Numbered from the stretch's first letter, positions 1,731-57,311 are shown. The stretch: 64,000 bases of DNA from Methanomassiliicoccales archaeon (GCA_026394395.1 JAPKYK010000003.1:12547-76546), one strand, 5' to 3'. Translations and numbers: made by a program. The notes: generated from the letters alone by a model not told the origin.

Positions 1731-3296
1731 ATGATTTTGCGAACTCGATTAGTTTGTCTCATGCTCGCAGCGCTTTTTCTGCTGTCAGCAGGCGCTGTCA
1801 CTGTGAACAACGCTTCTGCGGCGGTACCCGAACCGGAATGGCAGGAAGCCACACCATTACCTTATCCAATATATCTTGCGGCTTCGGTCCAGGATGGCAA
1901 TTATAATCTCTATATCATAGGTGGGCGCAGCGGCCTTTCCGCAAACCCGACGGACAATGTAACCTTATATGACCTGAGCAACGAACAGATCACGAGCCTG
2001 GCCAATATGCCTGTGGGCGTGGCTGGTGGTTGTGCGGCCATAGGGCTTGATGGTAAAGTGTATGTCTTTGGGGGCAAGAACGCAAGCATCGCTAACATCT
2101 ACATGCCTCAAGTGCAGATATACGATCCATCTACCAACACCTGGTCCTTGGGTGCATCAATGCCGGAGGCCGTGACCATCGCTGATGCGGTTGCCATGCC
2201 TAACGGACTCATCTATGTGATGGGGGGTAACAATGGAAGTGATCCAATACTCATCAAAGATATTATGCAGGTCTACGACCCGGTCGCCAATTCGTGGACC
2301 TTCGGTCCTTCCATGCCGACCGAGATATACTCCGGGTCTGCCGTGGCTATCAATGATAACACGATCATGTACCTGGGCGGGGGGAATTCCGACTCTTCCG
2401 TATCCTACAATACCATCATGTTCTATAACATAAGGGACGGTTACTGGTATACCTCATCATGGACCCTACCGGAGAAGATGGCCGCTACGGACGCGGTCAT
2501 CGGGCCCGACGGACAGATATACCTGATCGGCGGGGGGCGTGGTAATAGTGCGTGGAGCACCAATAGCTATACCAGCTACAACGGGTATTGCTTCAACCCG
2601 TTCAAAGGTGAAACAATCAGCGTGCCCGACATGACCCAGGACCGCAAATATCACTCGGTCGGGTTCGACGAGGAAGGCAATATCTTTGTGATAGGCGGAT
2701 ACTCGTTCGATGCACCGGTCGGGGAGACCACGGCCAACGCCTCGAAGCTGAAGGTCATGGACCTGCAGTTACAGGTGTTCCCGCAAGGCCAGGACATCAT
2801 CACTGGGGAACAGATGCTGGTGATTGCCGACTTCAACTTCGCCTTCGCTGATTATGAATCCGTGACTGCCCAGGTCAACATCCGCAATTCGGATGGCGAT
2901 GTCGTAGCCATGTCGGAGCTTTCCGCCTACGTCGCCGAAGGGAATCCCGGATACTATTGGGTGGACGTCCCACAGGGTTTACCAAGCGGGGATTATTCGG
3001 TAGAGTTCTCCAAGCTCAGGCCATCTTACTACCCGTATGACGACCTGAGCTTCGATGGGTTCGACATAGGGATAGGATTCGTTCACTCTCAGACCATGAA
3101 CGAGCAGCTGGAGGCTCAGAATCAGACCATAAACGACCTGCAAGACCAGGTGGGCGAACTACAGAACAACCTATCTGACGCCAACGACAAACTGGATGCT
3201 GCGGCGACCTACCTATTGATCGTCATGGTCATAGCTATAATCGCCGTGATAGTGGCCGTCGTCGTACTGGTGCTATCTCTTAGGAAAAAAGCCTAG
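1731..3296 (+). CDS. Secreted or membrane-anchored Kelch-repeat beta-propeller protein
   Basis: AGGAGG sits 7 nt upstream of the ATG. The N-terminus has a signal-like hydrophobic stretch (LVCLMLAALFLLSAGAV). Six Kelch-like blades each carry a GG doublet (YIIGGRSG, YVFGGKNA, YVMGGNNG, MYLGGGNS, YLIGGGRG, FVIGGYSF). A Q/N/L-rich coiled-coil-like segment precedes a C-terminal hydrophobic anchor (LLIVMVIAIIAVIVAVVVLVLSLRKKA). Confidence 0.8.
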   Translation: MILRTRLVCLMLAALFLLSAGAVTVNNASAAVPEPEWQEATPLPYPIYLAASVQDGNYNLYIIGGRSGLSANPTDNVTLYDLSNEQITSLANMPVGVAGGCAAIGLDGKVYVFGGKNASIANIYMPQVQIYDPSTNTWSLGASMPEAVTIADAVAMPNGLIYVMGGNNGSDPILIKDIMQVYDPVANSWTFGPSMPTEIYSGSAVAINDNTIMYLGGGNSDSSVSYNTIMFYNIRDGYWYTSSWTLPEKMAATDAVIGPDGQIYLIGGGRGNSAWSTNSYTSYNGYCFNPFKGETISVPDMTQDRKYHSVGFDEEGNIFVIGGYSFDAPVGETTANASKLKVMDLQLQVFPQGQDIITGEQMLVIADFNFAFADYESVTAQVNIRNSDGDVVAMSELSAYVAEGNPGYYWVDVPQGLPSGDYSVEFSKLRPSYYPYDDLSFDGFDIGIGFVHSQTMNEQLEAQNQTINDLQDQVGELQNNLSDANDKLDAAATYLLIVMVIAIIAVIVAVVVLVLSLRKKA

Positions 3297-10807: not shown

Positions 10808-11197
10808 TCAGCCGTAGCCGTCCATCTCATACGATGGCCGCTTCCCCGCCGGGCAGTTGGCCGAATGGCGTATGAGGTCCTTCACTGTGTTGCGGAGGAC
10901 GGTGGCGTTGACGTAACCTACGGCGCCGCCTATCTTCTGGCCCTTGCAGAAATAGACGAAGGTGGGGGTACCGGTAACCTGGTATCTGGCAGCCAGGACG
11001 TTGTTGTGGTCGGTGTTGATTTTCATGAAGGTGGCGTCCGCACCCACTTCCTTCTGGGCCTGCAGCACTTCCGGTTCCACCTGCTTGCAGACGGAGCATC
11101 CCGGGGACCAGAACTCCAGGACTATGAACCCCCTCTCCCTCCTCAGCAGGTCCAGGAAGAGCTCGTCGCTGACCTCTCTGATGTCACCCATGGGCAT
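10808..11197 (-). CDS. Thioredoxin-fold protein with an atypical CSVC active site
   Basis: VLEFWSPGCSVCKQVEP, with a cis-Pro region GTPTFVYF. The start was moved to the ATG at 11197 because the track ORF (to 11317) overlaps the upstream gene by more than 100 nt. Confidence 0.75.
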   Translation of the reverse strand: MPMGDIREVSDELFLDLLRRERGFIVLEFWSPGCSVCKQVEPEVLQAQKEVGADATFMKINTDHNNVLAARYQVTGTPTFVYFCKGQKIGGAVGYVNATVLRNTVKDLIRHSANCPAGKRPSYEMDGYG

Positions 11198-12939: not shown

Positions 12940-13455
12940 TTGAAAACGATGAGAAAGGACCCCATTCTCAATCGTCGGAGCATCCGGCGCTACACCGCGC
13001 AGGATGTGGAGGAGAAGGATGTCATGAAGGTCCTGGAGGCGGCCATGGCCGCGCCCTCGGCCGGAAACGAACGCCCCTGGCATTTCGTGGTCATCCGGGA
13101 CAAGGAGGTCATGCAGGGGATAATGGGAGTGCATCCGTATGCCCAAATGCTCAAGCGATGCCCGGTGACGGTGCTTGTGTGCGGAGACCCCTCGTTGGAG
13201 AAGTATCCCGGTTTCTGGGTGCAGGACTGTTCCGCGGCCACGGAGAACATGCTGATCATGGCCGTGGAACTGGACCTGGGCGCGGTGTGGCTGGGCATAT
13301 ATCCAATCGAGGACCGGGTACACGGCCTGAGGCGATTGCTGGGATTGCCGGAGGACATCATCCCCTTCGCCCTGGTCCCTTTGGGGCATCCGGACGAGGA
13401 GAAGAAGAAGCTGGACCGCTTCGACGGGGAGAGGGTGCACCGGGACGGCTGGTGA
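12940..13455 (+). CDS. Nitroreductase-family flavoprotein
   Basis: ILNRRSIRRYT, APSAGNERPWHFVV, and a C-terminal region LGHPDEE. Confidence 0.8.
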   Translation: MKTMRKDPILNRRSIRRYTAQDVEEKDVMKVLEAAMAAPSAGNERPWHFVVIRDKEVMQGIMGVHPYAQMLKRCPVTVLVCGDPSLEKYPGFWVQDCSAATENMLIMAVELDLGAVWLGIYPIEDRVHGLRRLLGLPEDIIPFALVPLGHPDEEKKKLDRFDGERVHRDGW

Positions 13456-13501: not shown

Positions 13502-13933
13502 ATGAAGCAACTTTGGAGATGTCACGTCTGTAACGATGTTCATCTGGGGAACAAGCCCCCGGATGTGTGCCCCACCTGCGGGGCCAAGAACGCCTTCGTG
13601 CGCTCGGATCTGAACGAAACGTTGGAGATCATAGGCAAGGAGCATCCGGCCATCGAGGCCCGCACGGACGTCGTCGCGGCCTGGAAGCAGTTCTCCGACC
13701 AGAGCCCCACGGTCAAGCTAACGGATAAAACGGACGAGATCGAGATACTGTCCCAGGGTGTCCTGGAGAACCTGCGGAACCGCGGGCAGCGCTATTGCCC
13801 TTGCCGCATAACCACTGGCGACCGGAAGAAGGACCTGAACCTGATATGCCCCTGCAACTTCCTCAAGCAGCAGACCTACAAGGAAACGGGGGAATGCTGG
13901 TGCGGGCTTTTCGTGAAGAGGGATGAGCAATGA
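13502..13933 (+). CDS. Ferredoxin:thioredoxin/disulfide reductase catalytic-subunit-like protein with an N-terminal rubredoxin-like domain
   Basis: The N-terminus has CHVC-x12-CPTC. The C-terminal half has the FTR catalytic Cys pattern CPC-x14-CPC-x13-CWC (YCPCRITTGDRKKDLNLICPCNFLKQQTYKETGECWCGLF). Confidence 0.8.
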   Translation: MKQLWRCHVCNDVHLGNKPPDVCPTCGAKNAFVRSDLNETLEIIGKEHPAIEARTDVVAAWKQFSDQSPTVKLTDKTDEIEILSQGVLENLRNRGQRYCPCRITTGDRKKDLNLICPCNFLKQQTYKETGECWCGLFVKRDEQ

Positions 13934-14217
13934 GCGATAAGAGATTGATCTGGTTCCACGGAAGGGAATGCCCCCATTGCCGCAAGATGGCCCCGATGGT
14001 GGACCAGTTCGAGGCCGAGAACGGAATCAAGCTAACACGCCTGGAGGTCTGGCACAGCGAAGAGAACGCCAAGCTGATGCGTTCGCTGGCCGAAGTGATC
14101 GCCCCAGCCTGCGGAGGTGACCTGGGCGTCCCGACCTTCTATAACGAAGTGACGGGCAAGGCCATCTGCGGCGGCCGCATCGACATGGACAAGCTCAAGG
14201 CCTGGGCCAAGGGGTGA
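13930..14217 (+). CDS. Small thioredoxin/glutaredoxin-like redox protein (CPHC)
   Basis: WFHGRECPHCRKMAP and the cis-Pro motif GVPTFY. The start overlaps the upstream stop by 4 nt. Confidence 0.8.
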   Translation: MSDKRLIWFHGRECPHCRKMAPMVDQFEAENGIKLTRLEVWHSEENAKLMRSLAEVIAPACGGDLGVPTFYNEVTGKAICGGRIDMDKLKAWAKG

Positions 14218-14498
14218 GTCCTTTGGAAAGAAGGGTCAGGGTCACCGGGGGCAAGACCCTGATCTTGAAGGTGGAATGTCAGGACGGTGCGGTGAAGGGA
14301 TTGCGCCTGCAGGGCGATTTCTTCTTCTTCCCCGAGGAAGGCGTGGCCCAGCTGGAATCGTTCCTGCTTACCTCTTCGATCTGGCAGATGGAGGACGTGG
14401 AATCGTTGATCTCCAAGTTCCTGGACGAGCACGGATACCGGGCGGTAGGGTTCGCCCCGGCCGACCTGGCCTATTTGCTGAGAGGATTGAGATGCTGA
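14214..14498 (+). CDS. lplB: Lipoate-protein ligase C-terminal domain protein (LplB type)
   Basis: 94 aa with ...KGLRLQGDFFFFPEEGVAQLESFL..., the GDFF-containing motif of the LplA C-terminal domain. The domain is encoded separately, as in Thermoplasma. The start overlaps the upstream stop by 4 nt. Confidence 0.75.
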   Translation: MSPLERRVRVTGGKTLILKVECQDGAVKGLRLQGDFFFFPEEGVAQLESFLLTSSIWQMEDVESLISKFLDEHGYRAVGFAPADLAYLLRGLRC

Positions 14499-15247
14499 GG
14501 AACAGGTGGAGGGTGCTGCGCTACGAGCCGAAAGCTGCGGCTTACAACATGGCCCTGGATGAGGCCATCGCCGAGGCGGTGAAGTTTCGCGTCGCCGGTC
14601 CGACCATCAGGTTCTACGGCTGGGAACCGGCGGCGGTGAGCATCGGGCGCTTCCAGGACCTGGAGGAGGTCGTGGACCTCGAGCAATGCCGCAAGCTCGG
14701 CGTCCAAGTGGTTCGCCGCAGCACCGGAGGCGGCGCCGTCTTCCACGACCGCGGAAAGGAGATCACCTACAGCGTCGTATGCCTCGAGGAGATGATGCCC
14801 CGGGACATCAACGAGGCCTACCGGGAGATAGGCGGTTGGCTGGTCAACGCCCTGAAGCTCATCGGCATCGAGGGGACCTTCGAGCCGATAAACGACGTGC
14901 TGGTGAACGGGAAGAAGATAAGCGGGAGCGCGCAATCCCGGCGGCAGGGCATCTTCCTGCAGCACGGCACTCTCATGTACGACCTGGACCGCGTGCGGAT
15001 GTTCTCGGTATTGAAGGTCCCCCCGGACAAGCTGAGGCCCCAGGGGATAGAGGGACCGGCCGAGCGGGTCACCAGCGTGAGGGAGCAGAAGAAGGTGCCT
15101 TGGGAGTTCGCCGTGGCTGCCATGGTCAACGCCTTCATCCTGAACAAGCAGTGGTACATCGGAGATCTGACCCAGGACGAACTGGCCCGGGCCGAACAGA
15201 TATCCCGGGAAAGATATTCCAACGAGGACTGGACCAGCGGTGCCTAA
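14492..15247 (+). CDS. lplA: Lipoate-protein ligase A catalytic (N-terminal) domain protein
   Basis: AYNMALDEAI, RFYGWEPAAVSIGRFQ, RRSTGGGAVFHD and the catalytic-Lys region NGKKISGSAQ. I use the ATG at 14492 (ATGCTGA overlap with the lplB stop). The track's 14276 start is an out-of-context extension. Confidence 0.85.
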   Translation: MLRNRWRVLRYEPKAAAYNMALDEAIAEAVKFRVAGPTIRFYGWEPAAVSIGRFQDLEEVVDLEQCRKLGVQVVRRSTGGGAVFHDRGKEITYSVVCLEEMMPRDINEAYREIGGWLVNALKLIGIEGTFEPINDVLVNGKKISGSAQSRRQGIFLQHGTLMYDLDRVRMFSVLKVPPDKLRPQGIEGPAERVTSVREQKKVPWEFAVAAMVNAFILNKQWYIGDLTQDELARAEQISRERYSNEDWTSGA

Positions 15248-16473
15248 TCCTCCAACAGCAGATGCTCCGGGTTCTCTAGCAGGTTGACCAGGTCCTTCAG
15301 GAACTTGGCGGCCACTGCGCCGTCGTAGGCTCGGTGATCGAACGTAAACGACAACGGCAGCACCTTGCGCACCTGCACTTTGCCGTCAACAACTAGCGGC
15401 GCGTCCATTATACGTCCCAGGCCCAGTATGGCCGTCTCCGGGTAGTTAACGATGGGCGTTCCGTACGTACCGCCGAAGACGCCGTAGTTGGTTATGGTGA
15501 AAGTACCTCCTTTCAGGTCGGCCAGGTCCACCTTCCGCTCCTGGGCGTTCTTGGCCAAAAAAGCAATCTCCTCGGCCAGCTCCCACAGGCTCTTCTGGTC
15601 CGCAGCCTTGATCACCGGGACCATGAGGCCGTCGTCGATGGCCACGGCCACGCCGATGTTGTAATACTTCTTGACCACCAGCTCTTCCCGCTCGTCGTCG
15701 ATCACGGAGTTCAGCAGCGGATGGGCCTTGAGCGCCCGGACCAGGGCGGTGATGATGAACGGTATGTAGGTGAGGCTCACCCCCCTCCGCTCCTTCATGG
15801 GGCCTTTGAGGCGCTCCCTCATCTCCACCAATCGAGTGACGTCCGCCTGCTCCATGCTGGTTACCGCGGCCACCTTCTGCTGCGATTCGAGCATGCGCTT
15901 GGCCGTGGTGCGCCTGATCCCCCGCATGGGGATGCGGTCCACGTAGCCGTAGATGTCGAACTTCGGCACAGTTCTAGGCGCGGCCTTGCGTCCCAGGTCA
16001 GCTTCCAACACCTGACCCTGCGGACCGGAGGGCGTCACCTGAGCTATATCCACGCCCTTCTCCTTGGCCATATACCGCACGGCCGGCGTGGCCAGGATCT
16101 CACGGCTGGAACGTTTGACCGTGGAGGACGACACCACCACCTCCTCGGTGGGCAGCTCGCCGACCACGGACACGGACGGCGGTCTCTCCTCCGGCTCGGT
16201 TTTCGGTAAGGTCGAATGTGCTTCGCCCTCCTCCCCAATTACCGCCAAGACCTCCCCCACCTTGACCAGCTCTCCCTCCTTGTGGTGGAGCTTCAGCACC
16301 TTTCCGGCCACCGGCGAGGGTATCTCCACCACCGCCTTGTCCGTCTCCACCTCGGCCAGGGACTGGTCCTTGTTCACCACGTCCCCTTCCTTGACCAACC
16401 ATTTCTTGACCTCGCCCTCGGCGATCCCCTCTCCCAGGTCCGGGAACTTGAACTGTATGGCCATCATGATCAC
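15244..16473 (-). CDS. 2-oxoacid dehydrogenase E2 (dihydrolipoamide acyltransferase)
   Basis: Lipoyl domain with EVETDKAVVEIPSP. Peripheral-subunit-binding domain ATPAVRYMAKEKGVD. Catalytic FTFDHRAYDG. Confidence 0.92.
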   Translation of the reverse strand: MIMMAIQFKFPDLGEGIAEGEVKKWLVKEGDVVNKDQSLAEVETDKAVVEIPSPVAGKVLKLHHKEGELVKVGEVLAVIGEEGEAHSTLPKTEPEERPPSVSVVGELPTEEVVVSSSTVKRSSREILATPAVRYMAKEKGVDIAQVTPSGPQGQVLEADLGRKAAPRTVPKFDIYGYVDRIPMRGIRRTTAKRMLESQQKVAAVTSMEQADVTRLVEMRERLKGPMKERRGVSLTYIPFIITALVRALKAHPLLNSVIDDEREELVVKKYYNIGVAVAIDDGLMVPVIKAADQKSLWELAEEIAFLAKNAQERKVDLADLKGGTFTITNYGVFGGTYGTPIVNYPETAILGLGRIMDAPLVVDGKVQVRKVLPLSFTFDHRAYDGAVAAKFLKDLVNLLENPEHLLLED

Positions 16474-17439
16474 CTAGAACCTCAACGTGCGCTCTATCCC
16501 TTCGACAATCATCTTCTCGTTCACGTAATAATGGTCCTCGCCCTTGGGCAGGGGGACCGTGATGTCCGGGGCGGTCACCCGTTCCACCGGCGCCTCCAGC
16601 TTCAGTATCGCTCCCTCATAGATGCGGGCGGCGATCTCCGCCCCCGGGCCGAAGGAGCGCGGGGCCTCGTGCACCACCACCGCCCTGCCGGTCCTGCGCA
16701 CCGATTCCAGCACCGTCTCCGAATCCATGGGCGAGATGGTCCTCAGATCGATGACCTCCACCGAGGCCTGCACCTGCGATAGGGCCTTCTGGACCAGGGG
16801 GATCATGGCTCCCCAGCCGACCACGGTCACGTCGTCCCCCTCCTGGACCACCCGGGACCTTCCCAGCGGCACGACGTGCTCACCGTCCAGCACCTCTTCC
16901 TTCAGCATGCGGTACGATCGCGTCGGTTCAAGGAACACCACCGGGTCCGGGTCCCGAATGGCCGAGGTCAGAAGTCCTTTGGCCTCCAGGGGCGTGGATG
17001 GCACCACAACTTTCAGTCCTGGTATCTGGGTGTACAGGGCCTCCGTGCTCTCCGAATGATGCTCTAGAGCTCGGACGCCAGCGCCGTAGGGCATGCGCAG
17101 GACCATGGGCACGGTGATCCGGCCTCGGGTCCGGTTCCGCATACGGGCGGCGTGGTTGATCATCTGGTTGAGGGAAATGTAGGAGAAGCCCATGAACTGC
17201 ATCTCCGCCACCGGCCGCAATCCGTTCATGGCCATGCCGATGGCCACCCCCACGATGCCCGCCTCCGCCAAGGGAGTGTCGATGACCCGTTCCCCGCCGA
17301 ACCTGTCCAAGAGGCCGTCGGTGACGCGGAACACCCCGCCGTCCAGGCCCACGTCCTCGCCTAGCACCACCACCGATGGATCGCGTTCCATCTCCTGCAT
17401 TAGGGCGGCGTTGATGGCCTGCACCATGTTCATCATCAT
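16474..17439 (-). CDS. 2-oxoacid dehydrogenase E1 beta subunit
   Basis: VVLGEDVG..GGVFRVT and RVIDTPLAEAGIVG, a transketolase-like pyrimidine-binding domain. The stop directly abuts the E2 start. Confidence 0.9.
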   Translation of the reverse strand: MMMNMVQAINAALMQEMERDPSVVVLGEDVGLDGGVFRVTDGLLDRFGGERVIDTPLAEAGIVGVAIGMAMNGLRPVAEMQFMGFSYISLNQMINHAARMRNRTRGRITVPMVLRMPYGAGVRALEHHSESTEALYTQIPGLKVVVPSTPLEAKGLLTSAIRDPDPVVFLEPTRSYRMLKEEVLDGEHVVPLGRSRVVQEGDDVTVVGWGAMIPLVQKALSQVQASVEVIDLRTISPMDSETVLESVRRTGRAVVVHEAPRSFGPGAEIAARIYEGAILKLEAPVERVTAPDITVPLPKGEDHYYVNEKMIVEGIERTLRF

Positions 17440-18491
17440 CTACCATCACCCCTCAGCTGCCTTTCGAGGTACGGGGGCATCTCGGCATAGGTGTGCTCGA
17501 AGACCTCGGAACGCGAGGGGACGGGCACGGCCTCCGCCTCGGCGGCGGCCATCTCCACCAATTCGCTCAGCTCTTTCTCGAGGGAACCGTCATCCTTGAT
17601 CAGATTTTGGGAGAGCAGGTAGGCCTTGAACCGCTTCAGCGGGTCCTTCATCTCCCAGGACAGCACCTCCTCCTTGGAGCGATACTTCCTCCAGTCGTCG
17701 GAGGTGGTGTGGTCGCTGAGACGGTAAGTGTACGATTCGATGAGCGTCGGCCCCTGGCCCCGGCGGGCCCGCTCCACCGCCTCCGTCGCCGCGGCGTACA
17801 TGGCCAGGACGTCGTTCCCGTCCACCAGGATGCCTGGGAATCCGTAGGCCACGGCCTTCTGGGCCAGGGTGGGCGAGGCGCTCTGCTTGGCACGCCTGGT
17901 CGATATGGCGAACTGGTTGTTCTGACAGACGAAGACGTTGGGCGTCCGGAAGACCCCGGCGAAGTTGAGCCCCTCGTGGAACTCCCCTTCCGAGGTGGCC
18001 CCGTCGCCGAAGAAGGCCATGGTCACGCTGTCCTCTCGCCTCAGCTTGCTGGCGTAGGCGATGCCCACGGCGTGCGGGATCTGTGATGCCACTGGGACCA
18101 CCGATGGCGTCGCCCTCGCTCCCTCTGGGTAAACGTTGCCCTGCTCGTTGCCCATCCAGTATAGGTAGGCCGTCCTCAGGGGCACGCCCTTCCACAACAG
18201 CCCGCCCATCTCCCGGAAGGCCCAGACCAGCCAATCCTTTTCCTTCAGGGCCATGGCCGGCCCGATCTGGCTGGCCTCCTGGCCTTTGCTCGGGGGATAC
18301 GCGCCCAGGCGCCCCTGCCTCTGCAGCTTGACCGCCTTGTCGTCCGCCAAGCGGGTGAGCACCATGGTGCGGTAGGCTTGGAGCATGATCTCCCTGCTCA
18401 TCTTCGGCTTGAGGGCGGCATCCACGTTCCCCTCCTCGTCCATTATCCGCAGCATCTCCCCCTTTAAAGGATCGAAATCGTCCGTCAGCAT
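17436..18491 (-). CDS. 2-oxoacid dehydrogenase E1 alpha subunit (TPP-binding)
   Basis: TPP motif FFGDGATSEGEFHEGLNFAGV...VCQNN. Overlaps the E1 beta start by 4 nt. Confidence 0.9.
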   Translation of the reverse strand: MLTDDFDPLKGEMLRIMDEEGNVDAALKPKMSREIMLQAYRTMVLTRLADDKAVKLQRQGRLGAYPPSKGQEASQIGPAMALKEKDWLVWAFREMGGLLWKGVPLRTAYLYWMGNEQGNVYPEGARATPSVVPVASQIPHAVGIAYASKLRREDSVTMAFFGDGATSEGEFHEGLNFAGVFRTPNVFVCQNNQFAISTRRAKQSASPTLAQKAVAYGFPGILVDGNDVLAMYAAATEAVERARRGQGPTLIESYTYRLSDHTTSDDWRKYRSKEEVLSWEMKDPLKRFKAYLLSQNLIKDDGSLEKELSELVEMAAAEAEAVPVPSRSEVFEHTYAEMPPYLERQLRGDGR

Positions 18492-19396
18492 CTTCTCGCA
18501 CCTGCCTCATGAATCAGATTGTAAGCGTCATAGGATGACCGCACCAGCGGTCCGGCCCGGACCCCCCTGAAGTCCATCGACAGGGCCGTGCTCCGCAGCT
18601 CGTCGAACTCTGCCGGCAGAACGTACCTTCTCAAGGGCAGGGTCGATCCGGCCGGAGGGAGATATTGACCGAGGGTGAGCAGTTCCACGCCCGCGGTCCG
18701 AAGATCCTTCATCGAAGTGACGACCTCCTCCTTTTCTTCCCCCAGACCCAACATCAGCGAGCTCTTGGTCATGATGCCAGGCTGCATCTCCTTGACCAAG
18801 GACAGCACGCCCAACGAGCGCTCATAGGACGCCCTGGCGTCCCTTATCCACTGCAATGAGCGCACCGTTTCCAGATTGTGCCCTAGCACCTCGGGCGATG
18901 ACATCGCCACCGCTTCCAGGCTGGAACGCCGCCCTTGCAGGTCCGGCACAAGGACCTCGATCGAGGTCCCAGGGTTCATCCAGCGCACTTGGCGTACCGT
19001 TTCCGCGAACATCTCCGCCCCTCCATCCTCCAGGTCGTCACGGGTGACGGAAGTAATGACCACGTGTCGTAAACCCATACATTTGACGGCCTCGGCCACC
19101 CGAGACGGTTCCCCCTCGTCCACGGGACCCGGGTCACCGCAGGGCACGGCGCAGAACCGGCAGTCCCTGGTGCACACGTCGCCCAGCAACATGAACGTGG
19201 CATGACCTTGCCCCCAGCAATCGCCTAGGTTAGGGCAGCGCGAGGAATCGCACACCGTGCGCAATCCTGAGGCGCTAAGGGAACTTCTCATGCCCTGGGA
19301 GCGGGCGGGCGACGCCACCCTGGTCCTCAGCCAGGGCGGTTTCTCCACTACGTCCGGAGGGGCCATGTACTGAGCATATGTCTGCCCATGGTTCAT
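18485..19396 (-). CDS. lipA: Lipoyl synthase
   Basis: Auxiliary cluster CDSSRCPNLGDCW (Cx4Cx5C) and radical-SAM cluster CTRDCRFC (Cx3Cx2C). Overlaps the E1 alpha start by 7 nt (ATGCTGA). Confidence 0.9.
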   Translation of the reverse strand: MNHGQTYAQYMAPPDVVEKPPWLRTRVASPARSQGMRSSLSASGLRTVCDSSRCPNLGDCWGQGHATFMLLGDVCTRDCRFCAVPCGDPGPVDEGEPSRVAEAVKCMGLRHVVITSVTRDDLEDGGAEMFAETVRQVRWMNPGTSIEVLVPDLQGRRSSLEAVAMSSPEVLGHNLETVRSLQWIRDARASYERSLGVLSLVKEMQPGIMTKSSLMLGLGEEKEEVVTSMKDLRTAGVELLTLGQYLPPAGSTLPLRRYVLPAEFDELRSTALSMDFRGVRAGPLVRSSYDAYNLIHEAGARRC

Positions 19397-20448
19397 ATGC
19401 CTTTCTTACCGAACCTACGAACGCAGCGCATGAGCGCGTCCACATGGTCCAAAGGCATTCCCCGGTGCAATGAGCAGGAGCACATGAAGACGTATCCGTC
19501 CCAAGGTTCGAACGTCCTAAGAAAACCTTCCGTCTCGTTAACGATCCTCTGTTCCGGACCCAGCAATAGAGTGGAGAAGGCGTCTATGCCCCCCATGAGG
19601 CACACCTTCCCGGAGAAGGCCTTCTTGAGCAGCTCCGCATCGTTGCCTTCGGCAAATTGGAACCCTTCGATGTCGGTGGCCAGGATGCCGTCCATCAGGG
19701 GCAGGTTGGGGCGCGAGCTCATATCCCCGTGCGGATGGAAGACGGTCGGTAGCCCGAGCTCATGGGCGGCCGATCTCAACCGGGCCAGGTTGGGCAGCGT
19801 GAGCTCACGGAAAGCCTCTTGGCCGAATATGTCCGGGTTGTCCGAGGCGGCGGCGATGAAGGCGCAGTCCAGATCGGCCCTTCCTGCCACAGCCCTCAGG
19901 TACTCCTCCCCCAGTTCCGTGGCGTACCGGACATAGGAGGCGGCAAGATCTGGCTGGAAATGCATGTCCAGGGCCAGGTTCTCCATGCCCCGTAGCAGCG
20001 CCGCCTTGGTGATCGGCCCTTCAAGGTTGCAGATGATGGCGGTATCCGATCTCATTTCCCGGGAAACTTGTTGATAGCAATCCAGTATATGGGGGAAGGG
20101 TGCGGTCCGTTGGAAATCCAATGGTTCGAAGATGGGGTCAACAGCATCTTGAAATGGGTGCCTGACCACGCTGGGGATTCCCCATTCTGGATACTTGACC
20201 AGTCCACCTAGGGCTTCGACCTCCAAGCCCACGAAATGTATGCAACCCACCACCGCATCCTGACCCAGGCGACGATGTAGGGCTATTATGGAACGGTATG
20301 CCTTGGTAGCATCATAAGCTCCGGCGCACACTTCCGGAGTGCTATAGTCCGATTCATCCAGGCCAAGGGTAAGGTCCCTAAGAAAGACCGGAGGGGCGTC
20401 TGGTACGCCCATCTCCAGTGCGCGAAGGAACCTCTCCCTGCCTTTCAT
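19393..20448 (-). CDS. Uroporphyrinogen-decarboxylase (URO-D) family protein, MtaA/MtbA-like
   Basis: 351 aa with a URO-D-like layout. Putative Zn-ligand regions are FHPHGD and FMCSCSL. The stop overlaps the lipA start (ATGA). Confidence 0.65.
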   Translation of the reverse strand: MKGRERFLRALEMGVPDAPPVFLRDLTLGLDESDYSTPEVCAGAYDATKAYRSIIALHRRLGQDAVVGCIHFVGLEVEALGGLVKYPEWGIPSVVRHPFQDAVDPIFEPLDFQRTAPFPHILDCYQQVSREMRSDTAIICNLEGPITKAALLRGMENLALDMHFQPDLAASYVRYATELGEEYLRAVAGRADLDCAFIAAASDNPDIFGQEAFRELTLPNLARLRSAAHELGLPTVFHPHGDMSSRPNLPLMDGILATDIEGFQFAEGNDAELLKKAFSGKVCLMGGIDAFSTLLLGPEQRIVNETEGFLRTFEPWDGYVFMCSCSLHRGMPLDHVDALMRCVRRFGKKGI

Positions 20449-20450
20449 GT

Positions 20451-21416
20451 TCAGTCCTCGGGCAGATAGCTCAGGTCCACGTTGTCCATGATCACCGGCA
20501 TCTCGTTTATCTTTCCAAAGCTCAGTAATGCCATGGCGGTCATGGTGATACTCTGCACGTCGGTGGCGTTGAAGCCGACCTCGTAGAACTGCACTATACT
20601 GCAGTTAGACTGGTCCTCGACGCTAAGACCGGTATGGTTGGCGCAGTCTAGCATGGCCTCATCCCAGTTCTCCACGATGAACTGGTTGGCCTGGTCCAGT
20701 GCTTTAAGGACCTTCTTAATGGCCTCGGCCTTCTCCTGCAAGGCTTTTTCCGAAGCGACCAGTACTATGGGGAATGTACTTCCAAGTTCCGAGGAGTTGC
20801 CCAGCTCGTGGACGTTATCACCACACAGGTTCTCGGTGTTCACTGCCCAGGGTTCGCTGCCGGCCATAGCGTCGATCTGCCTAGTGCTCATGGCCAAGGG
20901 GATATCAATGGGGTTCATGAAAACGAAGGTTATGTTGTCCGCGTTCACGTCATTGGCCTGGCACCATTGCAGGAATGCCCCATGCGTACTGGAGCCTTGC
21001 TGTAGTCCGACCTTCATGCCTTCCAGGTCCGTCGGTTGCACGATATCGTTCCAAGCGATGAAGCGGTGCATGCCGGCGCCACCGATGAAGCGGGCTACGA
21101 TCCTGGCCCCGGTGTCCTTGGTCATTAGCTGCACCGCCGGGGCGTCGCCCATGGCCGCCAGGTCGGTAGACGCTGTAATAAGAGCCTCGGCCGCCTGAAT
21201 GCCACCGGTCACGATCTTAGCGGTGATATTCAGTCCTTGATCTTCGAACATGCCCTCGTCGTTCGCTACCATTATCGTCTCGTAGTTCACCTTCTGTGAA
21301 TAGGCTATGGTGATGTCCGATTCCCCCTCCGACGAAGGTTGGAGCATGATTATTGCCCCAACGGCCGAGACGATCACGATGATCACCACGATTGCTGCCA
21401 ATATCTTACGGTTCAT
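20451..21416 (-). CDS. ABC transporter substrate-binding protein, NMT1/SsuA/ThiY-like (NitT/TauT family)
   Basis: N-terminal membrane anchor (ILAAIVVIIVIVSAVGAIIML). Periplasmic-binding-fold sequence with DLAAMGDAPAV and GSEPWAV. Confidence 0.7.
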   Translation of the reverse strand: MNRKILAAIVVIIVIVSAVGAIIMLQPSSEGESDITIAYSQKVNYETIMVANDEGMFEDQGLNITAKIVTGGIQAAEALITASTDLAAMGDAPAVQLMTKDTGARIVARFIGGAGMHRFIAWNDIVQPTDLEGMKVGLQQGSSTHGAFLQWCQANDVNADNITFVFMNPIDIPLAMSTRQIDAMAGSEPWAVNTENLCGDNVHELGNSSELGSTFPIVLVASEKALQEKAEAIKKVLKALDQANQFIVENWDEAMLDCANHTGLSVEDQSNCSIVQFYEVGFNATDVQSITMTAMALLSFGKINEMPVIMDNVDLSYLPED

Positions 21417-21420
21417 TCTT

Positions 21421-22221
21421 TCAATTCTCCTTCTCTACGCTAATGAAGGACACCCGGGGAGCGCTACTTGCGCAGGAGCAAACCTGCAATCCCCGGATCA
21501 TATCCTCCTTCAACTTCACCATCTGCGGCGAGGAAGGGTCCCTGGGCCAGGGTAGACCGATCCTCCATTCCTTGTTCATGCGTCCAGGTGACGCAGACAT
21601 GAGCACAACCCTCGTCCCCAGGATCAATGCCTCGTCGATGCTATGGGTGACGAAGACCACGGTCTTCCCCTCCTTCTTCCACAGGTCTAACACTTCATTA
21701 TCCAATTTCCTGCGGGTCTGTTCGTCCAGGGAGCCGAACGGCTCGTCCATCAACAACAGGTCGGGATTCATAGCCAGAGTACGCGCAATGGCCACGCGCT
21801 GCTTCATCCCTCCGGATAGCTCGTTGGGGCGGGCCTGAGCGAAGTCGGTCAGGCCGACTAGCTCTAGATATTTCAGGGCTATTCTTTCCCTCCCTTTTTT
21901 CTCCTCCGCACCGCGCAGAGAGAAGGTGACGTTCTGCAGAACGGTCATCCAGGGAAACAGGCTGGGTTCCTGGAACACCACCCCTCGCTCCGGGGAAGGT
22001 CTTTTGATAGGAATGTCCTTGAAGGACACCTTACCGGTGGTGGGGAATTCGAATCCAGCCAGCAAGTTCAATGTAGTGCTCTTGCCGCAGCCGCTCGGTC
22101 CAATAATGCAGAGGAACTCGCCCTCCTCTATATCCAGGGTCACATCGTTCAGCGCGACCAGACCCTTTCCCGTCCGGGGATTGGTGAAGACCTTAGACAC
22201 ATTCTTCAACGAAGCCAGCAT
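21421..22221 (-). CDS. ABC transporter ATP-binding protein (NitT/TauT family)
   Basis: Walker A GPSGCGKST, signature LSGGMKQRVAIAR, Walker B LLLMDEPFGSLD. The start was moved to the ATG at 22221, which lies 2 nt after the permease stop. Confidence 0.85.
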   Translation of the reverse strand: MLASLKNVSKVFTNPRTGKGLVALNDVTLDIEEGEFLCIIGPSGCGKSTTLNLLAGFEFPTTGKVSFKDIPIKRPSPERGVVFQEPSLFPWMTVLQNVTFSLRGAEEKKGRERIALKYLELVGLTDFAQARPNELSGGMKQRVAIARTLAMNPDLLLMDEPFGSLDEQTRRKLDNEVLDLWKKEGKTVVFVTHSIDEALILGTRVVLMSASPGRMNKEWRIGLPWPRDPSSPQMVKLKEDMIRGLQVCSCASSAPRVSFISVEKEN

Positions 22222-22223
22222 GT

Positions 22224-23060
22224 TCAGTCCTCCCTGTCCAGACCGAGACGGTTGCGCAACATGTTCTCTATCCAAACGAAGAACAGCTTCTCTATGATCA
22301 GACCGATGGCACAAATGACGATGATGCAGACGAAGGCGTCAATGAAATTCAGGCTGTACCTGGAATTGAAGATAGATGCTCCCAAACCTACGGATACCCC
22401 GACCACCATCTCCGCAGCGATGAGCACCCTCCATCCATTGGCCAATCCAACCCGCATTCCGTTGATAATGGACAAGGCCGCTCCAGGTAAAAGCACCTTG
22501 AAGAAGAGTGCCCAACTGTCCCTTCCTGACATCTGGGCCACGCGTGTATAGATGGGAGGCACCTGCCGCATGCCTCCGGCGGTGTTGATGACTATGGGCG
22601 GTAAGGCCGTTACCAGGATGATGAAGACGGTCGATGTCTCCCCTAGGCCGAAGATCAGCATGGCAATGGGGACCCAAGCCAGACCAGGTATCATCTGCAT
22701 GATATAGACCGGTATCATACCGGTCTCATGAAGTCTGGGTATGGTGCCGAAAAGGAAACCAATTACAATCCCAAGTACCAAAGCGATGATGTAACCCAGA
22801 CCCCATCGATACAGAGAAGCATTGGTGTGCGTGAAGATGTTCTCTCCATTGATCTTAGATCCATTAAGGGCGTTCCATAAGGCCTCAAAGGTCTCAAATG
22901 GTCTGGGAAAATCAGCACCTTTAACATATATGATGACCTCGGCAATTACCCACCAGGTGGCTATGACAATAAGAATGCCAAGGATAACATTCAATAGATT
23001 ACGAAGAAACAGCCTTCGCTTCTCTGGTGAAAATGTGAAATGGGAGCTCCCATCCTTCAA
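22224..23060 (-). CDS. ABC transporter permease (NitT/TauT family)
   Basis: Six hydrophobic segments and a BPD-transporter EAA-like loop (AQMSGRDSWALFFKVLLPGA). TTG start per the track, so the start is uncertain. Confidence 0.75.
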   Translation of the reverse strand: MKDGSSHFTFSPEKRRLFLRNLLNVILGILIVIATWWVIAEVIIYVKGADFPRPFETFEALWNALNGSKINGENIFTHTNASLYRWGLGYIIALVLGIVIGFLFGTIPRLHETGMIPVYIMQMIPGLAWVPIAMLIFGLGETSTVFIILVTALPPIVINTAGGMRQVPPIYTRVAQMSGRDSWALFFKVLLPGAALSIINGMRVGLANGWRVLIAAEMVVGVSVGLGASIFNSRYSLNFIDAFVCIIVICAIGLIIEKLFFVWIENMLRNRLGLDRED

Positions 23061-23242
23061 CGCCTTTGAAACCGCTTCGCTGCGTTCTAACCGCTCACAT
23101 CTTGTCAGGAATTCAAACCCCTTGATATTGATTTATATTATTTGATAATGAAATCAAATATTGTTTGTAAATTGCAAATAAACTATTTAATAATTTATTG
23201 CTCCGATTGGCCTCGACAACTATTTCGTTTTCCGTTGGAGAA

Positions 23243-23252
23243 TTTTTAAATA
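23243..23252 (+). promoter_or_regulatory. TATA-box-like element for the SRP RNA gene
   Basis: TTTTTAAATA lies about 23 nt upstream of the first base of the 5'/3' terminal helix at 23275. Confidence 0.5.
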
Positions 23253-23274
23253 GGCTGTATGAATAAGACCACCT

Positions 23275-23584
23275 GCTAGGCTTGACCGGGACGTTCGGCG
23301 TGTCCTTGTACACCGTAATCGTCGACATGCGGGGGTGACAGTGGGGGACGTCGTATCCGGAGCGTTAGAGGCCCAGTCATTGGCGCTGAGGCCCTGTCCT
23401 ACGGGGTCGGTGGCAGCATTGCGGTGCAGCTGGAGGGCGGCACTCCTTGCTCTGATCGTGGGGAACGGGTCAGGCCCTGACGGGAACAGCCTTACCACGG
23501 ACTACCTACGCTCGAAGGGGAGCGGGGCTGAGTCAGTGATTGGTCCACCTCTAGCGGTCCGGGCGGCAACCTCCATGGCCTAGC
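23275..23584 (+). ncRNA. 7S: Archaeal signal recognition particle (7S) RNA
   Basis: A GC-rich stretch of about 310 nt with no credible ORF. The 5' GCUAGGCU (23275-23282) pairs with the 3' GGCCUAGC (23577-23584). The 5' Alu-domain sequence GCUAGGCUUGACCGGGACGUUCGGCGUGUCCUUGUACACCGUAAUCGUCGACAUGCGGGGG closely resembles archaeal SRP RNA 5' ends as I remember them. A helix-8-like motif GGGUCAGGCCCUGACGGGAACAGCC is at about 23467-23491. A T5 run follows at 23587-23591. Confidence 0.85.
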
Positions 23585-23589
23585 ACTTT

Positions 23590-55304: not shown

Positions 55305-57311
55305 ATGAACGATGGTCGGAAGGGCAATCGCCTGATCGATGAGAGAAGCCCCTACCTCCTCCAGCATGCGCATAACCCGGTGGATTGGTACCCCTGGGGA
55401 AAGGAGGTCTTTGAGACGGCGAAACGCCTGGACCGCCCCATATTCCTCTCCATAGGCTATTCATCATGCCACTGGTGCCATGTGATGGAAAGGGAATCGT
55501 TCGAGGACCCGGAGATCGCCAAGCTGATGAACCGGGCCTTCATCAACATAAAGGTGGACCGGGAAGAGCGCCCGGACGTGGACAGCCTCTACATGAAGGT
55601 GTGCCAGATGATGACGGGCGGCGGAGGCTGGCCCCTCACCATAATCATGACCCCGGACCGGGTGCCCTTCTGGGCCGGGACCTACCTTCCACGGTTCACA
55701 AGGCAGGGGATGCCTGGCATGCTGGACCTAGTTCCAGCGGTGGAGAGGACCTGGAACGAGAGAAGGGAGGATATAATGGACGTCGCGGTCAACGTCCTGG
55801 AAATGCTCGACTCCATCGTCCGGGAACCGGTCGAAGGGGACGTCTCCTCCTTACCGGAACTGGCATTGGAAAAGATGAAGGAGGACTATGAACCGCGGCA
55901 CGGAGGCTTTGACGGGGAACGCAAGTTCCCCAGTCCCCACAAGCTTCTGTTCCTGTTGCGTCTTTGGAAGGAGAAGCAGGACCAGAGCGCGCTGGACATG
56001 GCCACGTTCACCCTGGACAATATGATCATGGGCGGGATCAGGGACCATGTCGGGGGAGGCTTCCATCGCTATTCCACCGACCCGCGATGGCATGTGCCCC
56101 ATTTCGAGACGATGCTCAACGACCAGGCGCTTATCCTCATAGCCCTCTCCGAGGCTTACGCCGCCACCTCAAAGGAAGCGTACAAGCAAGCGGCGGAGGA
56201 GCTGATGGCCTACGTGGAAGAGCGGCTCACCTCCCCAGAGGGGGCCTTCTATTCGTCGGAGGACGCTGACGCCGCGGGGGAAGAAGGCTCCTATTATCTA
56301 TGGACGTACAGCGAGCTGTCCGCGCTCCTTGGTCCAGAGGACCTGGCGACCTTCAAGGAGCTTTACGACGTCTGGGATTCTGGCAATTACCGGGACGAGG
56401 CCACCCGCATGAGGTCTGGAAAGAACGTCCTGCATCTGACCTCCTTCGTCTCTGAACATGCGGCCAAGAAGGGCAAGGACCCGGAGGCCATGATGGCCTG
56501 GAACGTTCAGATGAGAGGCAGGTTGAAGGAAGCGAGACGAAAACGACCCTCGCCTGCCTTGGACGATAAGGTCCTGGCGGATTGGAACTGCCTTATGATC
56601 GTCGCCCTTTGCTCCGCCCATCGCTATCTAGGAACAGAAAATGCCTTGAAGAAGGCCGAACGGGCCTTGGCCTTTGTCGAGGAGCGTATGGTCGTGGAGG
56701 ACGACCTGCAGCATAGCTGGCGGGAGGGCGCGGCCTCCATACCGGCCTTCCTGGACGATTACGCCTGCCTGACCTGGGCCCACCTGGAGATGTACTATCT
56801 GACATATGCACCTGGTCACCTGGAGAGAGCCCTGGCCTTGGCCGAGAGGATGCTGGTGCTTTTCGTCGATCGGGAGGATGGAGGCTTCTACCTATCGCGG
56901 GAGGACCCCGCTCTGCTGGTCCGGATAAAGGACCTTTACGACGGAGCGCTGCCTTCCGGCAACTCCGTCGCCTACTACACGTTCGCACAACTTGCTACCC
57001 TTTTCGACGATGCCAGGATCGTTAACGCCATGGAGAGCGTGGAGCATCATTTCCTGGACGAGCTGCGGACGTTCCCGGCCGCGCACGCCATGTTCATAAA
57101 CGGTGTCCTGATGAAGAGGGAGGGCAAGATGCTGGAGATGTTCGGGGGGGCGAAGCTGCCGTTGGCCGGTTATCACCCGCACCTGCTGATGATAATGGCT
57201 GAGCACATGGAGGGAGGAGCAGTCAGGAACGAACCTGGCTTCCGCCTTTGCACCAAAGGCCAGTGCCTGCCGGAGACGAACGACCCCTTGGAGATATTGA
57301 AGCTGTTATAA
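55305..57311 (+). CDS. Thioredoxin-domain protein of the DUF255/YyaL family with a C-terminal (alpha/alpha)6-barrel-like domain
   Basis: [54 protein letters not shown]. Confidence 0.85.

Follow-up and report, generated by a model that had tools for sequence, protein, structure and literature searches.

How can a 2-oxoacid dehydrogenase complex turn over when its E1 and E2 components are encoded together and no E3 is found with them? The E1-E2-E3 complex is a textbook enzyme, and E3 is regarded as indispensable for it. The question is raised by a 64-kb stretch of DNA (the window) from a metagenome-assembled genome (MAG) of a Methanomassiliicoccales archaeon (GCA_026394395.1, JAPKYK010000003.1:12547-76546), in which genes for lipoyl synthase (LipA), E1alpha, E1beta and the dihydrolipoyl acyltransferase E2 converge on genes for a rubredoxin-fused [4Fe-4S] disulfide reductase (RdFTR), a small thioredoxin-like protein (Trx) and the two putative subunits of a lipoate-protein ligase (LplB, LplA). 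Unless a contig is named, coordinates are positions in the whole window. The E1/E2 set is full, is kept under selection and is accompanied by lipoylation genes of its own, and the order of its host, which consists of strictly anaerobic methanogens, is reported to lack the E3 gene lpdA. Both in archaea and in bacteria, the same E3-less type of E1/E2 has genes for an Fe-S thioredoxin reductase and a thioredoxin beside it. We tentatively favor the reading that Trx would stand in for E3 by re-oxidizing the dihydrolipoyl arm of E2, and that the Fe-S reductase would link Trx to a rubredoxin/ferredoxin pool.

The locus encodes E1alpha2beta2 and E2 together with LplA/LplB and LipA, and no flavoprotein E3. 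On the minus strand, lipA (303 aa, 18485-19396) is followed by the genes for the alpha subunit of a pyruvate dehydrogenase (PDH)-type E1 (351 aa, 17436-18491), for E1beta (321 aa, 16474-17439) and for E2 (15244-16473; 409 aa from a GTG start, 407 aa from the ATG of the NCBI model). The genes for lipA and E1alpha overlap by 7 nt, those for E1alpha and E1beta by 4 nt, and the gap between E1beta and E2 is 0 nt, or 6 nt if the ATG is taken as the start of E2. These ORF coordinates agree with the junctions given in a preliminary description of this DNA. The same description had the operon end at E2, convergent with lplA, and the ends of E2 and of the plus-strand lplA do overlap, by 4 nt.

E1alpha matches E1_dh (8e-87), passes the equivalog TIGR03181 (PDH_E1_alph_x) with 447 bits (cutoff 411) and has an intact thiamine diphosphate (ThDP) motif, GDG-X26-NN. 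With E1beta (Transket_pyr 1e-48, Transketolase_C 1e-31), it makes up the ThDP-dependent, two-subunit E1 of a 2-oxoacid dehydrogenase complex. The E2 of such a complex is equally recognizable: it has one lipoyl domain (Biotin_lipoyl, 1e-24), an E3_binding or peripheral subunit-binding domain (PSBD, 2e-15) and a catalytic domain (2-oxoacid_dh, 6e-87), the lipoyl motif ETDKA and the catalytic motif DHRAYDG are both intact, and the protein is identical (100%) to a "dihydrolipoamide acetyltransferase family protein" of a Methanomassiliicoccales MAG at NCBI. The closest solved structures belong to the PDH of G. stearothermophilus, namely 1w85 for E1alpha (1.5e-81) and the E2p structure 3duf_I for E2 (1.8e-96), and both proteins match the branched-chain enzymes of Thermus, human, and Pseudomonas and the E2 of Thermoplasma less well. 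By equivalog cutoff and by its nearest characterized enzymes, the complex is of the PDH type at the sequence level, and its substrate is most likely pyruvate, a question that the preliminary description had held to be unreadable from the sequence. That description had also used the operon of Thermoplasma acidophilum as the comparator, which is not the closest one, because E1alpha and E2 are nearest to the G. stearothermophilus PDH and not to Thermoplasma or branched-chain enzymes. The locus is thus predicted to encode a self-contained, lipoyl-dependent complex of the Gram-positive PDH type, which would decarboxylate a 2-oxoacid, transfer the acyl group, and have its own cofactor supply.

LipA passes the equivalog TIGR00510 with 336 bits (cutoff 310), matches Radical_SAM (7e-15), and carries the motifs of a lipoyl synthase, i.e., the auxiliary CX4CX5C (CDSSRCPNLGDC), the radical-SAM CX3CX2C (CTRDCRFC), and the C-terminal RSSY. 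On the plus strand, the gene for the small ligase subunit LplB (94 aa, 14214-14498) overlaps by 7 nt that for the catalytic subunit LplA (251 aa, 14492-15247). LplA passes the Pfam family LplA-B_cat (2e-48) and matches NCBIfam LplA_large at 2e-61, with 207 bits for a cutoff of 480. LplB matches NCBIfam LplB at 1.6e-8, with 34.6 bits for a cutoff of 65, and one of its orthologs (L005) matches Pfam Lip_prot_lig_C. We found no second LplA/LipB-like gene in the window, where the LipB query was an approximate sequence used without a positive control. The presence of LipA without LipB or LipM, pointed out earlier as a peculiarity of this locus, is therefore upheld in the window, but it is not unusual: combinations of Lpl and LipA using free octanoate are found in ~8% of archaeal genomes, usually in gene clusters (PMC10332631), and NCBIfam contains a model for an LplA-LipA fusion. 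In other words, LipA with LplA/LplB is a known and ordinary route, and the ligase and LipA found here show no essential difference from this octanoate salvage. The lipoylation genes seem to exist solely for this E2.

E3 was searched for by similarity, by motif, and by domain. The best tblastn match in the window to E. coli Lpd, used as an approximate sequence, had an E-value of 0.36 over 28 aa. Since the same query detected 28-30% identical E3-like ORFs in other loci, it was sensitive enough. No real window ORF of at least 250 aa combines GxGxxG/A with CxxxxC, and Pfam scans of all large window ORFs returned no Pyr_redox family. The three approaches agree with the earlier statement that no pyridine-nucleotide-disulfide oxidoreductase is encoded in the window. 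Nor is there an E3-like ORF in any of 56 E2-bearing loci (611 kb), so that the third component of an E1-E2-E3 complex is missing from the window and from these loci. The E3 question is addressed here from the 64-kb window, these 56 loci, and the literature. On this basis, the notion of an E3-less operon holds for the window, the E3-less arrangement recurs in every related locus examined, and the absence of E3 is more than an operon split within the 64 kb. A comparison published in 2024 reported lpdA absent from Methanomassiliicoccales, its broad annotation finding 1-3 copies in other methanogen orders (PMC10804542). In its Table S5, pdhA, pdhB, pdhC, and lipA are "flexible" genes present in 6-7 of the 22 genera, and there is no row for K00382; the study counts trxB as a core gene of the order, and its authors are silent on the mismatch between pdhABC/lipA and lpdA.

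A flavoprotein was considered as the missing E3 and rejected. It is encoded directly upstream of RdFTR-Trx in Bathyarchaeota-like contigs (L078 4468-5904, L082 484-1929, L085 4438-5907) and passes NCBIfam NF004947 "dihydrolipoyl dehydrogenase" (770 vs 592), not TIGR01350. It belongs to a highly conserved family that occurs in unrelated contexts (L103, L105) and is not consistently found beside RdFTR-Trx. The top 120 matches to the L078 protein, all at least 74% identical, were from Bathyarchaeota, Nitrososphaerales, and Asgard archaea, and are uninformative for Methanomassiliicoccales.

The genes that converge on the dehydrogenase operon begin with RdFTR (143 aa, 13502-13933, plus strand) and Trx (95 aa, 13930-14217, plus strand). 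The overlaps along RdFTR-Trx-LplB-LplA, of 4, 4, and 7 nt, point to translational coupling. RdFTR is an FDR-like reductase of the FTR type with an N-terminal rubredoxin domain (FeThRed_B 7.6e-16, 58.5 bits vs a cutoff of 22; RUBY_RBDX 3e-9). FTR and FDR are listed as ferredoxin-dependent disulfide reductases, and FDR as a [4Fe-4S] class (PMC7278568). The orthologs of RdFTR invariantly have the rubredoxin motif CxxC...CPxC and the FTR motifs CPC99-101, CPC116-118, and CWC132-134, which are the cysteines expected of an FTR or FDR. The closest solved relatives are the M. acetivorans FDR 4tpu (5.7e-14) and 7pwe. RdFTR shares with 4tpu and plant-type FTR the FeThRed_B fold and the CPC...CPC...CxC cysteines, and FDR also has a fused rubredoxin-type center; unlike in 4tpu, where the rubredoxin domain is C-terminal, it is N-terminal here. 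In the alignment with 4tpu, the residue within the last CxC is Trp in RdFTR and Tyr in FDR; plant FTR has His between its last two cysteines. The N-terminal rubredoxin architecture is rare: of 1.84 billion representatives, 6 have it at a threshold of E<=1e-30, and 92 when the limit is E<=1e-10.

The thioredoxin-like protein has a CPHC active site and matches Pfam Thioredoxin at 8.7e-4, its 19.7 bits being below the gathering score (23.5). A profile of its orthologs matches PDI, DsbA, and Trx domains (best 1.2e-9), with PDI and DsbA first, and a single-sequence AlphaFold model had a pLDDT of 51, too poor for use. C14, H16, C17, C61, P68, and C80 are invariant in archaea and bacteria. The second cysteine pair of the protein, C61/C80, remains invariant from archaea to Aminicenantes and could form a second disulfide or a metal site. 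A nitroreductase-family flavoprotein (12940-13455, plus strand; Nitroreductase 1.4e-26) is encoded 46 nt upstream of RdFTR. This gene is present in L010-L016 and L020-L027 and not in L004, L005, L019, and L100, and its conservation beside RdFTR is restricted to the window's own clade. The wider neighborhood has a redox theme as well, with a canonical thioredoxin (10808-11191, minus strand) and a DUF255/Thioredox_DsbH protein (55305-57311, plus strand) besides the nitroreductase; no NADPH thioredoxin reductase was found in the window.

The neighboring thioredoxin system, which the preliminary description had mentioned in passing, proved to be the strongest lead. We compared 17 E2-centered loci with usable flanks, comprising the window, OW818644.1 (2.55 Mb), CP058896.1 (1.82 Mb), metagenome contigs, 7 Methanomassiliicoccales MAGs, 3 Bathyarchaeota MAGs, and 2 Aminicenantes contigs. 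The Trx-like gene is beside E1/E2 in all 17, and so is RdFTR wherever the contig is long enough to show it (that of L018 breaks off within Trx). A metagenome scan centered on RdFTR, made with an alignment of this protein, gave 80 loci at 40-79% identity. Trx directly follows RdFTR in 73 of the 74 evaluable loci, and E2 is present in 36 of the 43 in which it could be seen or excluded. Three independent gene orders were observed. In Methanomassiliicoccales (28 metagenome loci), RdFTR-Trx-LplB-LplA converges on E2-E1beta-E1alpha-LipA. In Bathyarchaeota (4 metagenome loci and the 3 MAGs), it is Lpl-E1alpha-E1beta-E2 that converges on Trx-RdFTR, without lipA nearby and between unrelated flanks. In Aminicenantes bacteria, RdFTR-Trx-E1alpha-E1beta-E2 is a tight co-directional operon without lipA or lpl; SecA and IMPDH genes lie upstream of it, opposite-strand genes follow directly after E2, and the E2 hits are named Candidatus Aminicenantes. 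Given these three orders, and an Aminicenantes operon that has neither lipA nor lpl, the link is to E1/E2 and not to LipA or Lpl. As the N-terminal rubredoxin architecture is rare, its repeated adjacency to E1/E2 is unlikely to be due to chance. The dependence looks one-sided: this type of E1/E2 was never seen without the pair, while the pair can stand alone.

Across the relatives of the module, the identity of E2 goes down to ~57%. In three loci assigned by GTDB to Candidatus Bathyarchaeota (L017, L018, L019), the E1/E2 and Trx-RdFTR proteins are 50-63% identical to those of Methanomassiliicoccales, between unrelated flanks. A lateral transfer of a five- or six-gene unit between archaeal phyla is suggested by these sequences, with mis-binning argued against only for L019, on a contig of 498 kb. 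The module appears to be present in a cultured genus, Methanomassiliicoccus, and exact copies of the window's E1alpha were found in only three Logan assemblies, all of one study. Some relatives have altered versions. The gene for E1alpha is split by a frameshift in OW818644.1 (L004 7927-9011), and E1alpha and E1beta are called as a single 687-aa product in a 2.56-Mb ENA contig (L106 2928-4991); these calls may reflect either sequencing error or decay. In L025 and L059, LplB-LplA-E2-E1beta-E1alpha-LipA is missing as one block, and RdFTR-Trx then adjoins AIRS and NrdD genes, while L058 has kept E2 and lost E1 and LipA.

How would such a complex work? In the mechanism that we favor, LplA/LplB would attach octanoate or lipoate to E2, and LipA would insert the sulfurs. 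After transfer of the acyl group to CoA, the dihydrolipoyl arm would be re-oxidized by dithiol-disulfide exchange with the CxHC thioredoxin-like protein. The latter could be kept oxidized by thiol-dependent acceptors, by RdFTR, which would pass single electrons to its own rubredoxin center and then to a rubredoxin/ferredoxin-type pool, or by the core NADPH thioredoxin reductase of the order. Together, Trx and RdFTR would then do the work of E3 and provide an outlet independent of flavin and NAD. Lipoamide exchanges with thioredoxin close to equilibrium, and the onward step to a rubredoxin-type center would be downhill. The invariant His of the CxHC motif is a typical feature of the more oxidizing members of the thioredoxin superfamily, without being decisive. 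A plausible physiological role would be an O2-insensitive route by which a strict anaerobe obtains thiol reducing power from 2-oxoacids. We regard it as possible, with somewhat more reserve than for the mechanism itself, that E1alpha/E1beta/E2, the CxHC Trx, and the rubredoxin-FTR represent a previously unrecognized class of 2-oxoacid dehydrogenase, in which an Fe-S thioredoxin system replaces E3 and the oxidation of pyruvate is coupled not to NAD+ but to thioredoxin and to a pool of the rubredoxin/ferredoxin type, and which gene transfer has carried to several strict anaerobes (Methanomassiliicoccales, Bathyarchaeota, Aminicenantes).

Several observations weigh against this model. The electron flow that it proposes is deduced from gene order. 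The transfer of electrons from dihydrolipoamide (about -290 mV) to ferredoxin would be uphill, and the characterized M. acetivorans FDR works the other way, using ferredoxin to reduce Trx. The CxHC motif does not fix the direction either, because at least one archaeal CPHC Trx is reportedly of low potential. RdFTR-Trx is found without E1/E2 in 7 of the 43 loci, including the close relatives L025 and L059, and three Aminicenantes loci (L083, L089, L091) keep the SecA-IMPDH synteny and RdFTR-Trx without E1/E2. Since the pair persists where the dehydrogenase block is gone, it has a role independent of E1/E2. The PSBD of E2 (residues ~126-160) is canonical in most relatives and hence compatible with the binding of E3, though E1 needs this domain too and the domain cannot separate both. 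The E3 searches covered the window and the 56 E2-bearing loci, and the published absence of lpdA is an annotation-level comparison. As to the PSBD, comparison with approximate reference sequences revealed Gln at the position of the G. stearothermophilus Arg156 and PSG for GTG in the window's own clade, the other Trx-linked E2s being canonical. We rejected this change as a sign of lost E3 binding: the equivalent of Arg156 is lost only in that clade, which gives no consistent signal.

The direction in which known FTR and FDR work, reducing thioredoxins with ferredoxin, would be respected if Trx and RdFTR served or regulated the complex, with lipoyl or E1/E2 cysteines reduced or repaired by ferredoxin electrons in the style of chloroplasts, and another enzyme re-oxidized the arm. 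Candidates for this oxidant would include an Hdr-like protein, the flavoprotein of the nitroreductase family encoded next to RdFTR, and the NADPH thioredoxin reductase, if it acted on the arm directly. The occurrence of RdFTR-Trx without E1/E2 in some of the loci, the core status of trxB in the order, and the position of the nitroreductase gene just upstream of RdFTR in the window's clade are in line with such a role. Still, it does not say which oxidant would sustain the turnover of the complex, no nitroreductase gene accompanies the pair in L004, L005, and the Bathyarchaeota and Aminicenantes loci, and in the five-gene operon of Aminicenantes RdFTR-Trx are the sole members other than E1/E2. 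We consider this explanation unlikely, while giving it real weight. Rather improbable, in our view, is an operon split in which a canonical E3 (lpdA or the glycine-cleavage L-protein) encoded elsewhere in the genome serves E1/E2 and the thioredoxin genes are mere neighbors. E3 genes are often unlinked in bacteria, E2 has kept its E3_binding/PSBD domain, with canonical residues in most relatives, and the search of this MAG covered its 64-kb window. Yet lpdA is reported absent from the order, with no K00382 row in the table cited above, 0 E3-like ORFs were seen in the 611 kb around the related E2 genes, and a chance neighborhood fails to explain three gene orders in three phyla, one of them a single operon.

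It is very unlikely that the genes are left over from a PDH operon that was acquired horizontally and lost its E3, and that this remnant is decaying or does not cycle, being capable at most of a single turnover or of side reactions. The frameshift in OW818644.1, the deletion of the whole block in L025 and L059 and of part of it in L058, and the "flexible" status of pdhABC and lipA would fit such a history, but split genes are numerous in the assemblies to which the frameshifted contigs belong, and all genes of the module are under purifying selection. The dN/dS is about 0.07-0.2 across LipA, E1alpha, E1beta, E2, and LplA, in comparisons near synonymous saturation; the individual ranges are 0.12-0.28 for LipA, 0.07-0.10 for E1beta, and 0.08-0.16 for the Trx-like protein, and selection is weaker on LplB (0.16-0.70) than on the other module genes. 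Furthermore, no catalytic motif is disrupted, three dedicated lipoylation genes are retained with the complex, and the module is conserved down to the lowest E2 identity given above. We give hardly any credit to the idea that RdFTR-Trx supplies electrons or cluster repair to the lipoylation enzymes, notably the radical-SAM LipA, and not to E2. LipA needs a low-potential reductant, and in the window the overlaps couple the pair to LplB-LplA; against this, the Aminicenantes operon has neither lipA nor lpl, the Bathyarchaeota loci have no lipA nearby, and the pair survives the deletion of lipA and lplAB in L025 and L059.

For comparison, the PDH of G. stearothermophilus (pdhABCD) resembles the present complex in its E1alpha/E1beta heterotetramer and in the make-up of its E2, which combines a single lipoyl domain with a PSBD and a catalytic domain. 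Unlike in this bacterium, pdhD/E3 is missing here from the operon, the window, and the related E2 loci, the host is a strict anaerobe, and the flanking genes are those of lipoylation and of an Fe-S thioredoxin system. Thermoplasma acidophilum belongs to the same archaeal class as the host of the window, and its 2-oxoacid dehydrogenase has the same E1/E2 domain plan; its two-subunit lipoate ligase has a putative counterpart here. Its operon, E1alpha-E1beta-E2-E3, ends in E3, whereas the one described here ends at E2, with no E3 as the fourth gene. The Thermoplasma E2 is also a more distant match (3rqc, 2.8e-45) than the G. stearothermophilus catalytic domain (3.6e-64), and T. acidophilum has no lipoyl synthase (PMC10332631). 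Eubacterium acidaminophilum has no dihydrolipoamide dehydrogenase, and its thioredoxin system was proposed to take the electrons of glycine decarboxylase (PMC4056300). It resembles the present case as a strict anaerobe with a lipoyl-protein system without E3, and its operon has a small CxxU redox protein; its partner is the glycine cleavage H-protein instead of E2, and the reductase there is an NADPH-dependent flavoprotein, a thioredoxin reductase, instead of an Fe-S enzyme of the FTR type with a rubredoxin. In the Lpd-DlaT-AhpD-AhpC peroxidase relay of M. tuberculosis, the dihydrolipoyl arm of E2 gives electrons, by disulfide exchange, to a small redox protein, which supplies antioxidant enzymes in turn. 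Unlike in our model, its Lpd (E3) reduces the lipoyl arm with NADH, and its AhpD does not have a thioredoxin fold. In the open-access literature searched, no link of FDR to lipoyl enzymes is reported, and we found no paper that connects 2-oxoacid dehydrogenases or lipoylation with Methanomassiliicoccales, Aminicenantes, or FTR/FDR. Borziak et al. (PMC3904984) found the genes for 2-oxoacid dehydrogenase complexes and lipoylation to be missing from archaea that are obligate anaerobes, among them the methanogen orders sequenced by that time, and proposed these genes as markers of aerobiosis; Methanomassiliicoccales were outside that sample.

Upstream, the minus-strand array does not start with lipA, as had been thought. 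The start of lipA overlaps by 4 nt the stop of a gene with the URO-D fold, akin to MtaA/CmuA-family methyltransferases (19393-20448, minus strand; URO-D 2e-37; TIGR01463 6e-30, below cutoff), and the binding protein, ATPase, and permease of an SsuA/NMT1-type ABC transporter are encoded further upstream (20451-23060, minus strand; NMT1 2e-16, SsuA_fam 9e-33, ABC_tran 9e-35, BPD_transp_1 3e-16). With intergenic gaps of 2-4 nt in this part, eight co-directional minus-strand genes run from 23060 down to 15244 and end at E2. The ABC transporter is probably in the same transcription unit as lipA-E2, and an AT-rich intergenic stretch with TATA-like boxes, recognized by direct reading (23061-23270, minus strand), is the likely promoter region of the array. 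The URO-D gene would be a co-transcribed neighbor of lipA, which does not imply a functional membership in the module. A methyltransferase of the MtaA/CmuA kind and a sulfonate-type transporter might indicate a link to coenzyme M or a methylated sulfonate. Both the URO-D gene and the transporter are kept beside lipA in the window's clade only; in more distant relatives they are absent, and lipA is the first gene of the operon. A full-length archaeal signal recognition particle (SRP) RNA gene (23274-23585, plus strand; RF01857, 171 bits) lies between an AIRS-like gene and the AT-rich stretch that precedes the ABC permease. The window also encodes an archaeal AdoMet synthetase, a DUF373 protein, and an anaerobic ribonucleotide reductase, which, with the SRP RNA, fit a strictly anaerobic archaeon. 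Elsewhere, it encodes a Kelch-repeat beta-propeller protein of 521 aa (1731-3296, plus strand; Kelch_1 4e-27).

The association of this E1/E2 type with an Fe-S thioredoxin system suggests that the lipoic-acid arm may be recycled in a manner not described before, and the E3-less class may be an oxygen-insensitive source of reducing power for thiol-based defense. If the Trx-RdFTR pair does replace E3, a classic enzyme family would have a new electron outlet. The case for using E2 and lipoylation genes as markers of aerobiosis in metagenomes would be weakened, and the widespread and functionally obscure FDR family would gain a concrete partner.

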